The notes: generated from the letters alone by a model not told the origin. Positions 200-57,170 are shown, counted from the stretch's first letter. The stretch: DNA of 64,000 bases from Eledone cirrhosa (GCA_964016885.1 OZ024741.1:172422001-172486000); one strand, 5' to 3'. Numbers and translations: made by a program.

Positions 200-1272
200 A
201 AAAATGGCGGGCTGCGTGGTTTCAAATGGCTTACATATGAATAAAATTAGTCCTTCATCAGTGATCTTCCAGCCTTCATTGGTATTTATTCGCTTTAAAG
301 ATCATATACCTCTGGTTGGTGCGAGCAATAGAGCAATAACTAAAGAAAGTTATTGGGACACGTAAAATAGGATGAAGCGAGCGAGACATGTAAACAAACA
401 TAGATGGTAATGCAACGGAAAGAGAAGAAGAGAAGAGACAAGTCCGTGATATCTATGAACTTAAGTTCTGTGAAATCATAGACGAGAGATAAAGACCTGG
501 GTGAGATGTGAGCGAGAAAAGGATTTCACGCAGGTCAAACGGGGGGAAGTGAGAGAGGGTGAGTAGCAGAGTGTGAGTGAATGAGAGTGTGAGGAAGAGG
601 CCAGCTGAGAGAGAGTGACTGGCTATACCTCTGGTTGGTGCGAGCAATAACTAAAAAAAAGTTATTTGGACACGTAAATTAGGGTGAAGCAAGCGAGACA
701 TGTAAACAAACATAGATGGTAATGCAACGAAAAGAGAGGAAGAGAAGAAACAAGTCCGTGATATCTATGAACTTAAGTTCTGTGAAATCATAGACGAGAG
801 ATAAAGACCACCCGAACTGGGTATTATGTGAGCGAGAAAAGGGTTTCACACAGGTCAAACAGGAGGAAGTGAGGGAGGGGGAGTAGCAGAGGGTGAGTGA
901 GTGAAAGTGTAAGGAAGAGGCCAGCTGAGAGAGAGACTGGCAGAGGGGGTAAAAGGAGGGTGAGAGAAACAGAGAAAGGGGAGGCAGTAAAAAAAAATAG
1001 ACAGGTCACAGCGGAGGAAAAAATATAAATATATGAAAAATTGCGGGCTGCGTGGTTGCAAATGGGTTACATATGAATAAAATTAGTCCTTCATCAGTGA
1101 TTTTCCAACCTTCATTGGTATTTCTTCGCTTTAAAGATCATATACCTCTGGTTGGTGCAAGCAATAACTAAGAAAGTTATTGGGACACGTAAAATAGGGT
1201 GAAACGAGCGAGACATGTAAACAAACATAGATGGTTTGCATTACCATCTATGTTTGTTTACATGTCTCGCTC
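200..1272. repeat. Partial tandem repeat array ending in a perfect fold-back hairpin (PLE pLTR-like)
   Basis: ~305-625 recurs at ~625-940, and ~200-410 recurs at ~1035-1235. The array ends in the hairpin gagcgagacatgtaaacaaacatagatggt-ttgcatt-accatctatgtttgtttacatgtctcgctc (~1206-1272). The same family appears at ~50555-50655. Confidence 0.75.
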
Positions 1273-1532
1273 GCTATATGGATATAAAATATACCGAAGC
1301 CAGAACCAATCCAAACCAAACAGTGGGTGTTTTATTATATATTTCTAGCAATATTATAACAATATGACCCTCCCACAATATGACAATATTTATTTCAACA
1401 CATGATTTCATATAAAAAATCTTGCAAAACAAATTCATAGCCGTATATATATATATATATATATATATATGTGTGTGTGTGTGTGCGTGTAAAAGTAATC
1501 AAAGAACGCCGACATACTCATACAATTTATTT

Positions 1533-1577
1533 GCTGACAATGTTTCATCCATACCATTTGGCAGGAATCATCAGAGC
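1533..1577 (-). ncRNA. Minimal type-I hammerhead ribozyme motif
   Basis: Minus strand reads GCT-CTGATGA-TTCCTGCCA AA TGGTATGGAT-GAAAC-ATT-GTC-AGC. The core is canonical, the site is GUC, and stem I is GCT/AGC. Confidence 0.75.
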
Positions 1578-2980
1578 TTTATATACAAAAATACAGTGCT
1601 GAGTATAAGCTCTACCGAGCTTAGTCACATGAACATTAGAAATACAATAGAGGGCATCAAGAGGGAGATCGTGAATAGCGAGTATGGAGAGAGTGCATAG
1701 TGGGGTTGTTATTCAGCACTACAGCTAAATGCAATGGTACAGGCACATATTTTCACAAAATGCAGAAGCACGTGAGGGCACATAAAGGCAAAAAGTATAA
1801 ACAATAGTTAAAACATATAATAAAAAGTAAAAGGAAAATAATGATATAAAGAGATAAAAAAATTTTAAAAATTAAAAAAGAAAAAAGAAAGAGAAAAAGT
1901 TTTAAAGCACACAAAAAACAGAGGAAGCTATGCGATGGTCACTATATATAACAGGTGATTTAGCTCTCCATAACTTAGAGTTATAGAAATACTAAAAGGC
2001 TCCCAAGATATATTCAGAAAGCCCAAATGGGATTTTATTCCTCCCCATAGTATACATAATCAAGGTATACTAGTAGTTTACGGAATTATGTGGAATATGG
2101 GTGCTAAACCTGTATATAGACAGGTACCACATAAATACAAGCCAAACACAAGCAAAGCGGGGTTAATGCATGATCAGGCTAAAGAAAAAATACATAACAG
2201 AAATGGTTTAGTTCCTGAAACATCACACATCGGGCGAGGAGTCACTACATATGTGTATCTACCGTAGAGGTTAGGCCAATCGGTTTCATATGCCTCGATT
2301 GTCTAGAGTTATGAAGATATTGGATTATCCGTAGATAATAATTCGGTCCACACTTTACAACATAAAGTAGATCATCCGTAAAGTGCAATCCAGACGGATA
2401 TATACGATTACCAAAACAAAACATCACATATAGTAACATGCAATACAGGCTGAATATACACATAAAAAAATCCCCACATGTTCAAAATCCCAGATCGGAT
2501 CGTGAAGTACAGTGTGTTCAAGTTGCAGCTCCAAATTCTGTACATCCAAAATCGTCACACCTAATCCAGCAGCGAACACATCAAAACAATGCCAGGTTAA
2601 GTGTAGTTGTAATTTACCGTTGACCAAACGCATACAGCACGTGGATTAACAATCTATACAAAATATACAAAATAGAAAAATAACACAAAGTGCTCAAATC
2701 AGTAAATCCACCATGTACCACGGTATGTCTATTAGGTAGGGTCATACGCAACAGGCATATAAAAAAATTATCTAAGACAGCTTACATACCCCGCAGAAAT
2801 TTAGGAGTTCGGCTCCATAAAAAATAAACACACGCTACATATAAGCAAAAGGGATATTCAATGTGTTGGGAATTCAACAAATATAAATGTTTATAACTGA
2901 TTCAGAGCACTCGACAGTTTTCTGGAGTATAATATTCAATGATATTAAATAAATCGAAACTATATTTATAAAACCATATT

Positions 2981-3041
2981 TATTCTATTATATATATTTC
3001 AAGGATACCAAAACTTTGGTACGCTTTCATCAGATAAAATA
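2981..3041 (-). ncRNA. Minimal type-I hammerhead ribozyme motif
   Basis: Minus strand reads TATTTTAT-CTGATGA-AAGCGTACCAAA GT TTTGGTATCCTT-GAAA-TATATA-TA-ATAGAATA. The surrounding 2860-3070 is the same family as 7540-7760. Confidence 0.75.
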
Positions 3042-3778
3042 CAAAGTTTGTTTTATAAATGTTGACATAACCAAGGAAAGATACCTTAACGGTTCAAGTT
3101 TTCCTTGGATAGTGAAGGGATAAGAGAAGAAAAGTCAGATATTTCAAATTATTAAGATGAGTATGCAAATGAGGTAGAGGTATAGGGCTGAAAACAACGT
3201 TATTTTAGACGCTATGCAGAATTTAAATGTATGAGTAGGAAGAAGAGCTTGTATTTACGTTAATTTAAAAGGAAAGATGGAATATGATTCCAGAATTTAA
3301 ATTCATTTAGCTAAATTATGAGTTATAATAATGTATATATAATCAATTAGATTATATGAAGAATTATGGTTGTAAGTATATTTTATCTTATTACATTACA
3401 ATAGGTTATAAGTATATAAATATATATATAAATTAATAATTGTGCATGTATAAGTATTATAGAAATAGAAATAATTTACAATTGTTAGTTGTTTACATGA
3501 GTTACGAAGGATGTTGATTTTGCATTCTACATAAAAAAAACAGGTGGTTCAAGTTGTAAGAGGAGAACAATTTGTAGATTCGAATATTTTGTTCCAAAAT
3601 TGAAAATGTTTTCAGAATATTGTTAATTTAGCTAATTTATATAGTTTATCGTACATATTATATTATATGTTTATGTTTGCACGATTGAAAAGGGAAAGAT
3701 AACTCCAATCTTGTTTGTCAACCGTTAAATTTGATGAATGATTTGCTCAGAAAATATATAGAGAAAATCATATATTAT

Positions 3779-55060: not shown

Positions 55061-55324
55061 TTTACCCAATCTAGAGAGAAATTGGCACCAGTTGGTATTG
55101 GCACTGCAAATTGCTATGTCCGGCCAATGCACTTAACATGTAAATAAATGTCAAAAGAGAATTGTTATTAAGCCACACGCAGGTCAGGCCCAATGACTGA
55201 TGACGATGGCGATTAATAGTAGTAGTAGTAGTAGTTGTTGTTGTTGTCAAACGTCATCTCCAACCAAGAAAATCTGTAAACAAATGTTTCATGTCAGTAA
55301 CAATCTTCTCCTGTTTTCAAATAA

Positions 55325-55500
55325 TATTTGTTTCTACTATTGGCACAAGGCCTGCAATTATCTCAGTTCATAACTAGTACTTAATTTTATCGACTCCGTA
55401 AGGATGAAAGGCAAAGTTAACCTCGGTGGGTCTTGAAATCAGATCATAAAGGGCCGTAACTCTGTGTTGCAAAGCATGGCGTCCGATCTACCGATACTAT
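55325..55500 (-). mobile_element. tRNA-derived SINE
   Basis: Reverse complement of the family consensus. Confidence 0.85.
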
Positions 55501-55664
55501 GTATTATTATTTGGTTGCTATTTCTGGCAGATAATTTGACCATTTCATGGCATCTTTGTTGGCTCATTTGTATCTTAGTTGTTGTTGGTGGTGGCGATGA
55601 TGATGTTGTTGTTGTTTTTGTTGGTTCGTGTTGTTTGTTATTTTATTGCTGTTATTTCTAAGGG

Positions 55665-55880
55665 CAGTGGATTGGCAGTATGGGTAGAGGGTCGGCCACC
55701 ATGTTTTTCAGCATAGAGTTACGGCCCTTTATGATCTGAGTTCAAATCCCGCCGAGATTAACTTTGCCTTTCATCCTTACGGGGTCGATAAAATAAAATA
55801 CCATTCACGCACTGGGATCGATTTAATGGTCTTTCCCCTCCCCCAAAATTGCTGGCCTTGTGCCTATATAAGAAACTATT
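55665..55880 (+). mobile_element. tRNA-derived SINE (long form)
   Basis: Full head, body and tail. Confidence 0.9.
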
Positions 55881-56754
55881 GTTATTATTTCTTCGATGTT
55901 AAACCATATTTGACACGAATTTATGATGAATTGGTATGTAGTTCAGGTATTCTAACGCCTGGAATACTTATATTAGGAACAGGCGATGGATTTCTCATTG
56001 TTAGCAATATGGCTGATGGTTATGCGGGGGTTGGGGATATAATGACTTGTGCTGATATTTTTAGCCCCAAGGCAGATTTAATGAACAGAACCTGTTTTCA
56101 AAGGTGTCCAATCCATAACCATTCTGCCTATTGTTTTTTTCAGACAGAACTACATTACACAATGTGTCTTCTGTAAAAAGTCAATCTGTGGTTTGCGAGG
56201 AATTTAGCTGATATTTCCAGTAGATCAAGCTCTTAAGTAAAACTTCCTCGAATGCTGCTAATGTTCTTATATAACTTTAGGTTATCCCGATCGAGAAAGC
56301 CTATAATTAAAGGTGTTCTGCCGTGGCAGTATCATTTTTTTTTTTACCAGACAACATTATACAGAGTATCCTTACATTTTAAGAGGTAGCACCAGAGAGC
56401 TGCTATTTCCACTTTCTCAGGTGAATAAATTTAGGCTCCTTATGTGGCTTTTCAAGTATTATTTGTAGTGTTATTCTAAATAAGAGCAGAATTGGCCAAC
56501 TAAGACACGGTCTGAACATACCAATCACCTTTACTCCGTACTTATTATCATCTGCGGTGTGCACACCAGTCAGTACAAGTCCCTATCCCTCAGTAGTCTA
56601 TCGAAGTATATTACATGAGTTGAACCCCAAAACTATAAAACAGAGGATCTGTTGATAGATTTGACTTACTGCCACTACATGCGTTTAATTTACACCTCAC
56701 CAATACTCATACATACGCGTGCGTATATATATATATAGATATATATATATATAT

Positions 56755-57170
56755 TTCGTTTCTGAATTTGTTTCGCAAGATTCTTTATCTGAAATCGTGT
56801 GTTGAAACCGATATTGTTATACTTTGGGAGGGTCATGTTGCCAATAAGAAACACATTTATAAATTCCTAAATTTATAAATTTATTATAATAAATTGAAGT
56901 GAAAGCAACTGGTGCGTGTGTTTCTTATTGGCAACATGACCCTCCCAAAGTATAACAATATATATATATATATATATATATATATATATAATAAATAAAT
57001 ACATACTATATATATACATACTACAATAAATAAATACATACTATATATGTATCAAATGCATACATTCATATATACATCGCTATTTCAGAGCACCAATACT
57101 GATATATATATATATATATATATATGCTCTAAAATAGCGATGTATATATGAATGTATGTATTTGATACAC
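56755..57170. repeat. Two short fold-backs between (TA)n tracts (56811-56961 and ~57050-57170)
   Basis: The first has perfect ~45-bp arms atattgttatactttgggagggtcatgttgccaataagaaacaca. The second pair is gtatcaaatgcatacattcatatatacatcgctattt and its reverse complement. Confidence 0.85.

Follow-up and report, generated by a model that had tools for sequence, protein, structure and literature searches.

Two-armed insertions of Penelope-like elements at (TA)n tracts in Eledone cirrhosa pair a tailed with a tail-less arm

The window analyzed here is a 64,000-nucleotide stretch of the Eledone cirrhosa genome (3.0 Gb; GCA_964016885.1, OZ024741.1:172422001-172486000, on the contig we call C2). An earlier note on this DNA listed 11 inverted repeats, most of them abutting (TA)n, and attributed them to a shared (TA)n-primed fold-back insertion mechanism of Penelope-like elements (PLEs) or non-coding, retrozyme-like derivatives. 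All 11 were recovered at those coordinates by self-BLAST and a repeat finder, with arm identities of 74-98%. Seven are head-to-head two-armed insertions of PLE families (Table 1): three are Hydra-type, two are Neptune/Nematis-type, and two (families F and H), for which no open reading frame (ORF) was found, are placed among PLEs by structure only. All seven have (TA)n at both true ends, with one arm tailed and the other tail-less. Because the tails, of 33-160 bp, are missing from the coordinates of the earlier note, the true insertions are longer than the listed repeats. In the window copy of family H, the tail is shortened (∼70 bp in other copies). The other four repeats differ in kind, which is at odds with a mechanism common to the whole set; it is for the seven that (TA)n priming, hammerhead enrichment, and an origin from PLEs are supported.

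Table 1. Repeats, insertions, and motifs in the window (positions counted from its first nucleotide)
Feature	Position	Strand	Remarks
Family B (Hydra-type) two-armed insertion	7529-8002		(TA)n both sides; tailed arm 7529-7796 (tail 7529-7613), tail-less arm 7812-8002
Family B minimal type I hammerhead motif	7667-7715	-	mirror copy 7901-7949 (+)
Family C (Hydra-type) two-armed insertion	20313-20800		(TA)n both sides; tail-less arm left, tailed arm 20529-20800 right (tail ∼160 bp)
Family C hammerhead motif	20394-20356	-	CCGAAGA core
Family F two-armed insertion	22786-23107		tailed arm left (tail ∼80 bp), tail-less arm right
Family F hammerhead motif, long stem II	∼22974-23063	+	stem I cut at junction
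Family A (Neptune/Nematis-type) two-armed insertion	32522-34220		no hammerhead hit; long tail-less arm left with short interspersed element (SINE) 32597-32786; tailed arm 33743-34220 right (tail ∼33 bp)
Family A reverse transcriptase-endonuclease (RT-EN) frame, 5'-truncated	33131-33742	-	Cys linker and GIY-YIG domain
Family H two-armed insertion	34236-34460		tailed arm left, tail-less arm right
Family H hammerhead motif	34394-34433	+	CUGAAUGA core
Family D (Hydra-type) two-armed insertion	49024-50508		tail-less arm left, tailed arm 49883-50508 right (tail ∼78 bp)
Family D hammerhead-like motif	50321-50416	+	A at core position 8
Family G (Neptune/Nematis-type) two-armed insertion	56755-56961		tailed arm left (tail 56 bp), tail-less arm right
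Helitron-like element, 3.6 kb	35590-39216	-	5'-TC ... CTGG-3', between A and T
Family M pair, two short 3' ends	57050-57170		tail-to-tail on central (TA)n; ∼310-bp tandem unit
Family I partial tandem	199-1443		anchored at (TA)n 179-198
Junction hairpin	1206-1272		inner end of family I tandem; not itself TA-anchored
G-related arm	1274-1443		follows the junction hairpin; ends at (TA)n
Nested composite	29535-30433		old inverted repeat, arms 74% alike
Old-family copy inside composite	29610-29775
Small D-related two-armed insertion inside composite	∼29776-29968
Piece of another TA-anchored family inside composite	30000-30176

The single tail is a rule that extends across the genome. Searches were made with one arm per repeat, and the best 30 of 40 scored matches were retained per search (20-30 copies per family); copies of the GIY-YIG frame comprised 30 loci and 20 longer stretches from 150 matches. 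When eight family references were mapped on all collected loci, 176 pairs of arms lay head-to-head and began, on either outer side, at a defined start site. This count leaves out pairs that end elsewhere, those separated by a gap of >120 nt, and those enclosing a TA tract between their arms. Two starts are seen in each family, an outer one where the tail ends and an inner one lying 33-160 nt deeper, and paired arms nearly always display one of each. Indeed, 164 of the 171 same-family pairs are tailed/tail-less; the exceptions are 5 tailed/tailed pairs, three of them continuing into a tandem copy, and 2 tail-less/tail-less pairs. Tailed/tail-less pairs also account for 110 of 114 pairs not selected for their tail (p = 3e-28), and for 12 of 13 (p = 0.002) in a genome sample of 40 evenly spaced 10-kb stretches (400 kb), as assessed against an independent choice of start site, which would give at most half tailed/tail-less. 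(TA)n is present on both sides of 146 of the 164 pairs. In at least two mixed-family two-armed insertions (L294:123-2105 and L089:1340-2504), the tail-less arm belongs to family G and its head-to-head partner, a tailed arm, to B or C; these insertions have (TA)n on both sides and keep the one-tail pattern.

TA anchoring, as remarked in the earlier note, is above chance. Using a generic repeat caller, with simple repeats masked and SINE arms dropped prior to counting, contact with (TA)4 was found for 10 of the 17 window repeats and 46 of the 84 sample repeats, compared with 8-12% of random positions. In library-free calls, contact with TA is one-sided in 42 of these 46 TA-anchored repeats and two-sided in 4; 30 of the 42 have (TA)4 15-200 nt past their other end (null, 19%). 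What did not survive is the claim of a very high density at this place: TA-anchored repeats number 1.6 per 10 kb in the window versus 1.15 in the genome sample, and TA tracts are rarer in the window (10.5 versus 17.9 per 10 kb). The 40 evenly spaced stretches rule out a local hotspot and show the window to be ordinary for this genome; the fold-back pattern is genome-wide rather than local.

The arms of the 164 tailed/tail-less pairs differ widely in their reach. The arm extending further inward is the tail-less one in 57 pairs and the tailed one in 56, with the inner ends within 10 nt of each other in 51 (permutation mean of 31, with a maximum of 42 in 2000), and the tail-less arm exceeds the tailed arm by up to 2.8 kb (L037). 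In 14 pairs there is almost no overlap, the tailed arm not passing the inner site by 20 nt, and these are plain inversions. Junctions are distinct in 157 of the 164 pairs and, therefore, represent per-insertion events, which rules out that the fold-backs spread as fixed units. As classified crudely from BLAST ends, the junctions show overlap in 76 cases, are blunt in 8, and contain inserted bases in 80. The two arms of an insertion also share sequence variants. Recurrent minor alleles are common to both arms at 166 of 214 sites (78%), compared with 1423 of 8529 (17%) between insertions, sharing being clear in families A, B, D, and G, and an arm's own partner is strictly the nearest in 35 of 124 cases, against 9 expected.

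The inner start sites resemble their target. Their match to TA spans 5 nt in family B, 6 in C, 3 in D, 4 in G, and 3-4 in H as scored by script, 7 nt in A as read from genomic sequence, and 3-4 nt in F by eye; the null chance of at least 3 nt is 5% per junction. At (GA)n flanks, the family C junction moves to an AG match (L085 and L086). Single tail-less arms with TA on both sides occur (L082 and L184), which indicates that the inner site primes on its own.

Together, the one-tail rule, arm geometry, shared variants, and TA matches of the inner starts lead us to prefer twin priming from a single RNA to the self-priming proposed in print. In L1 twin priming, one RNA serves both target strands, the second of which primes at an internal position. 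For the two-armed PLE insertions, reverse transcription is probably primed by both cut (TA)n ends, at two UA-rich starts within a single RNA. (TA)n being self-complementary, the 3' end of either strand may pair with either start site, so that one primer would occupy the inner site and the other would take the free outer site. The outer cDNA would then either halt before the inner site, giving a plain inversion as in L1 twin priming, or run through, displace the first cDNA, and recopy the same stretch, giving an inverted duplication. Host end-joining would connect the two cDNA ends via short microhomologies or inserted bases. The hammerhead would be doubled because it is located just inside the inner start, and the scheme assigns its cleavage no part in forming the fold-back. 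A wider claim, whose chances we see as evenly balanced, is that obligate twin priming on one RNA with cDNA displacement underlies the combination of an inverted pseudo-long terminal repeat (pLTR) and a single tail, with start sites set by pairing on (TA)n, and has generated in this one genome ∼3 x 10^5 palindromes that form hairpins and often bear hammerheads, from many unrelated families.

Several points weigh against twin priming on one RNA. Tailed/tailed and tail-less/tail-less pairs do exist (5 and 2, respectively), and L089 and L294, by joining arms of two families, show that two templates can be used. Allele sharing shows no clear excess in families C (1/7) and F (1/6) and a modest one in H (3/7), sites within one insertion are not independent in this count, and the set of copies leans young and query-like. 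The script that scored the start sites assigned only part of the arms (14 of 42 in D and 7 of 16 in C fall in the top classes, none was scored in F). For the duplicated part, a second RT pass and fold-back DNA synthesis cannot be separated by sequence alone; later one-sided deletion at palindrome centers could lengthen either arm relative to the other, and variant sharing could stem from two RNAs of one source locus or from gene conversion at a later time. Moreover, the only PLE assayed in vitro starts at sites that are not homologous to its target (PMC11167929).

Self-priming, or snap-back, which was proposed in PMC3846280 from palindromes at inverted junctions, holds that one cDNA or antisense RNA folds back and is copied, that the copy joins (TA)n at an internal TA-like motif, and that the center is subsequently remodeled by deletions. 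Both of its predictions, identical arms and matched inner ends, are observed, and short junction hairpins exist (1206-1272 in the window and L069). A hybrid version, in which both ends are primed and the duplication is filled by snap-back, fits all counts. Pure self-priming, the simple form invoked in the earlier note, fits poorly, since the tail-less arm cannot outreach the tailed arm, yet does so in 57 of the 164 pairs and by up to 2.8 kb, which would require one-sided deletions of up to kilobases in a third of the copies. The 14 barely overlapping pairs are plain inversions, and single tail-less arms and tail-less/tail-less pairs show priming at the inner site on its own. We therefore regard self-priming as unlikely. 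We are similarly doubtful of a scheme in which an asymmetric RT-EN dimer uses two RNAs, usually from one source locus, each strand having its own RNA and favoring a different start site. A PLE dimer is predicted in PMC11167929, and the mixed-family pairs L089, L294, and perhaps L207 are tailed/tail-less, as this scheme would have it. However, the arms of a pair match even though many subfamilies coexist, mixed pairs are few (5 of 176, including a doubtful tailed/tailed and a doubtful tail-less/tail-less case), and the start site did not differ between strands in vitro (PMC11167929).

That the palindromes are assembly or library artefacts (fold-back reads), or ordinary miniature inverted-repeat transposable elements (MITEs) with long terminal repeats, is very improbable. 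Contigs from three sequencing runs of one sample did not cover the family B junction at 7800-7809, which proves nothing because those runs hold under half of the query words. Likewise, no contig or restriction site-associated DNA read bridges the tested junctions, which speaks neither for nor against an artefact. Contrary to what an artefact would give, arm divergence amounts to 2-19%, including indels and a SINE insertion, and read-derived contigs show (TA)n joined to the inner start of family C (loose ends at 20645). Although one listed repeat is indeed a fixed feature of a DNA element, the two-armed insertions lack the fixed inverted termini and fixed interior of MITEs. Their ends are asymmetric and lie at family-specific start sites, and their junctions are distinct in 157 of 164 pairs.

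Hammerheads were sought with a type I descriptor that asks, on the sense strand, for the core CUGANGA/GAAA/UH, a short stem III, and stems I and II. It is satisfied by 28/30 copies of family B, 24/30 of C (with U4C), 11/30 of F, 13/30 of G, and 22/30 of H (with one extra nt), and there are no hits on the antisense strand. Families A, D, E, I, L, and M gave no hit of their own, and no hammerhead was found in the Helitron-like element. By this descriptor, the motifs are minimal type I hammerheads with putative self-cleavage. The earlier note was right about five repeats with hammerhead-type motifs, three of which (7614-8002, 20308-20645, and 34289-34460) satisfy the descriptor; the other two qualify in part, stem I being cut at the junction in 22866-23107 and the core being altered in 49024-50432. 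No hammerhead was found for the repeat enclosing the GIY-YIG segment, family A giving no hit, and in the window copy of family G both arms stop short of the family's hammerhead. The window contains 5 descriptor hits, compared with 0.07 per shuffled 64 kb. There are 34 hits in the 400-kb sample, 15 of which are in repeat arms (6% of bases), and 29 lie ≤300 nt upstream of (TA)5 (null, 27%). The Rfam check suggested earlier returned no hammerhead at gathering score in 102 kb (11 sources), including the window. With E up to 5, none is among the 150 of 214 matches listed, in which microsatellite-driven microRNA models predominate, and the stability of monomer folds does not exceed that of shuffles (z -0.9 to -1.4). 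Apart from the listed repeats, the window has two more single arms with a hammerhead, at 1487-1760 (motif 1574-1536, - strand) and 2836-3072 (motif 3033-2989, - strand).

Family D has stems I and III and the GUC site, and the window subfamily has C3 with A8 instead of the C3-G8 pair. A sister subfamily has U3-A8, a core pair described in PMC4209133. A genome-wide search for a canonical hammerhead with a short stem II in D relatives gave 0 matches. Hammerhead cleavage was rejected as the origin of the arm ends in family D, where most arms end at reference positions 120-140, past the cleavage point at ∼100. Besides this accumulation of ends in D (inside hammerhead stem II), there are others at 140-160 in H and at 300-330 in G, the last near a AAGATGGCG motif, which we take to be YY1-like. 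These pile-ups may be RT stops or RNA 5' ends, with query or alignment bias possibly contributing in part.

The insertions can be linked to autonomous PLEs. The earlier note had also seen a GIY-YIG coding segment inside one repeat, and the frame at 33131-33742 (- strand) does match Pfam PF01541 (E 4.5e-6), sharing 93% identity with intact 784-aa frames elsewhere in the genome. Many intact copies of family A have a 455-aa frame (ORF1) and this 784-aa RT/GIY-YIG frame between 1.5-kb pLTRs, with Pfam RVT_1 and GIY-YIG both above cut-off. Family G codes for an RT (below the Pfam cut-off), a CX4CxxC linker, and a GIY-YIG domain (above it). Both A and G display a CX2-5CxxC linker before GIY-YIG and a CCHH-type EN, which suggests that they are Neptune/Nematis-type, the two clades not being told apart. 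Families B, C, and D have no Pfam RT or EN match. Nevertheless, frames within their long arms carry Hydra-clade motifs, which were read by eye, and the RT of B and D is similar to that of family A by tblastn. An RT frame with a CxCx5C linker is found in long family B copies (L291 and L292), a family C ORF in L296, and family D ORF pieces in L299 and L301; the linker is intact in B and C and degenerate in the D copy seen. The EN frames of C and D are without CCHH and have CxxC and CxH around E and N, as well as DKT in D, while that of B is broken in both copies seen. The copies of these three families do not include the N-terminal part, where the RWK motif of the Hydra clade would lie. No PLE ORF was found in the two longest copies of family F, nor in copies of H, I, and M, those examined being short or tandem units; by their structure, F, H, I, and M would be PLEs. 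The families display the PLE traits of variable 5' truncation, pLTR tandems, inverted copies, and a tail, and those with an ORF show the arrangement of endonuclease-bearing (EN+) PLEs, RT followed by a GIY-YIG endonuclease.

The single ORF of PLEs is not found in family A, in which the two frames overlap at T6A in 17 of 18 sites, from copies chosen mostly for a 784-aa frame; in one copy with T7A the frames are fused. In a full-length copy (L031:5973-6042, - strand), ORF1 and RT-EN overlap in -1 phase at T TTT TTA, presumably a slippery-type heptamer, which also ends in a possible AG splice acceptor, and no strong stem is predicted downstream. ORF1 has three unnamed homologues and no Pfam family. 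A two-frame EN+ PLE would be unusual. Elsewhere in the window, a single tailed family A arm (63048-64000) starts from (TA)n 63012-63049 and continues past the window end, a second GIY-YIG frame follows a family G 3'-end piece (10634-11175), and there is an RT fragment with 35% identity to family A (20994-21623).

The four other repeats are diverse. That at 35589-36683, listed as a fold-back insertion, is instead a fixed internal repeat, present in 29 of 30 copies, of a Helitron-like element that extends beyond it. Helitrons are defined by 5'-TC, 3'-CTRR, and insertion between A and T. In copies of the present element, T follows CTGG in 29 of 30 and A precedes TC in 6 of 7; there is a clear hairpin at the 5' end and just a weak one at the 3' end, and no RepHel frame was found at 35590-39216. 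The repeat at 57050-57170 has a topology opposite to that of a head-to-head fold-back, being a tail-to-tail pair of family M ends, a form seen around (TA)n in 2 further of 20 copies (L385 and L393). Across families, 12 tail-to-tail neighbors are of the same family and 35 are mixed; such pairs may arise by two nicks without melting of the central duplex, or by serial insertion. The hairpin at 1206-1272 belongs to a family I stretch (199-1443) in which no complete hammerhead was found. The composite at 29535-30433 contains nested insertions within an old repeat, and neither the collected loci nor 40 scored candidates obtained with a longer query include a relative of its outer arm (29535-29612).

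A SINE of ∼190 bp is abundant on both strands (22563-61654), one copy splitting the family A left arm, and a SINE fragment is fixed within family D; this SINE may resemble an octopus SINE. Pieces of another TA-anchored family with 62-bp inverted arms, absent from the earlier list, lie at 39259-39363 and 40983-41123, and this family has 35 matches in the collected loci. A C2H2 zinc finger is matched once in the open frame at 13668-14054 (- strand).

Inverted pLTRs, tails, hammerheads, and (TA)n targeting of PLEs have all been published (PMC8557442, PMC3846280, PMC4209133, and PMC8969392). EN+ PLEs (PMC8557442 and PMC3846280) likewise show 5'-truncated copies, partial tandems, an inverted copy at the 5' end, a tail often at one end only, microsatellite targeting, and hammerheads in the pLTR. 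What differs here is that the tail rule is counted (164/171), that tails span 33-160 bp versus 30-40 in the published elements, and that arm geometry speaks against pure self-priming. Families B, C, and D are similar to the Hydra clade (PMC8557442) in their C-terminal GIY-YIG-type EN without CCHH, (TA)n targets, and hammerheads, but have long 3' untranslated regions (elements of >3 kb), with an altered ribozyme core and a degenerate linker in D; the assignment to this clade is by the motifs that PMC8557442 gives. Families A and G share with Neptune/Nematis (PMC8557442) the RT, the CX4CxxC linker, GIY-YIG with a Cys/His motif, and microsatellite targeting, but A has two overlapping frames (455 and 784 aa) rather than one ORF, and no hammerhead hit. 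Hammerheads of PLEs and non-LTR (long terminal repeat) retrozymes are type I with a short palindromic stem III, and in Schistosoma paired motifs lie on opposite strands 100-700 bp apart (PMC4209133 and 10.64898/2026.07.22.740005), whereas the present motifs are tied to defined two-armed insertions.

For Poseidon of Anolis carolinensis, assayed in vitro (PMC11167929), both strands are nicked and extended, two internal RT starts bound the tail, and hammerhead cleavage is not needed. Our twin-priming reading extends this finding of both-strand extension from two internal sites. It differs by target homology, the start site there not being homologous to the target whereas inner sites here match TA over 3-7 nt; the text consulted of PMC11167929 does not address inverted-arm formation. 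As in L1 twin priming, which is named in PMC10191854, 14 of our pairs are plain inversions, but here each family has its own fixed second site, and the shared stretch is duplicated rather than inverted in most products.

The elements themselves are new members of already known clades. What appears new is the one-tail rule, counted in 171 genomic same-family pairs, and the twin-priming reading, neither of which was found in the searched literature, which lacks most subscription papers. No paper applying twin priming to PLEs turned up in these searches, which miss older Penelope reviews as well. PMC8557442 counts the origin of tandem and inverted PLE structures among the open problems, and self-priming (PMC3846280) is the only mechanism found proposed in the searched papers. 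Thousands of young copies, a simple target, and intact ORFs are available in this genome, and the one-tail rule makes the question of the PLE mechanism directly testable with barcoded RNA. By rough scaling from the sample, TA-anchored palindromes would number ∼3 x 10^5 in this genome and hammerhead motifs ∼2.5 x 10^5. These palindromes are a large source of hairpin DNA and double-stranded RNA, and annotation pipelines could file them as MITEs.

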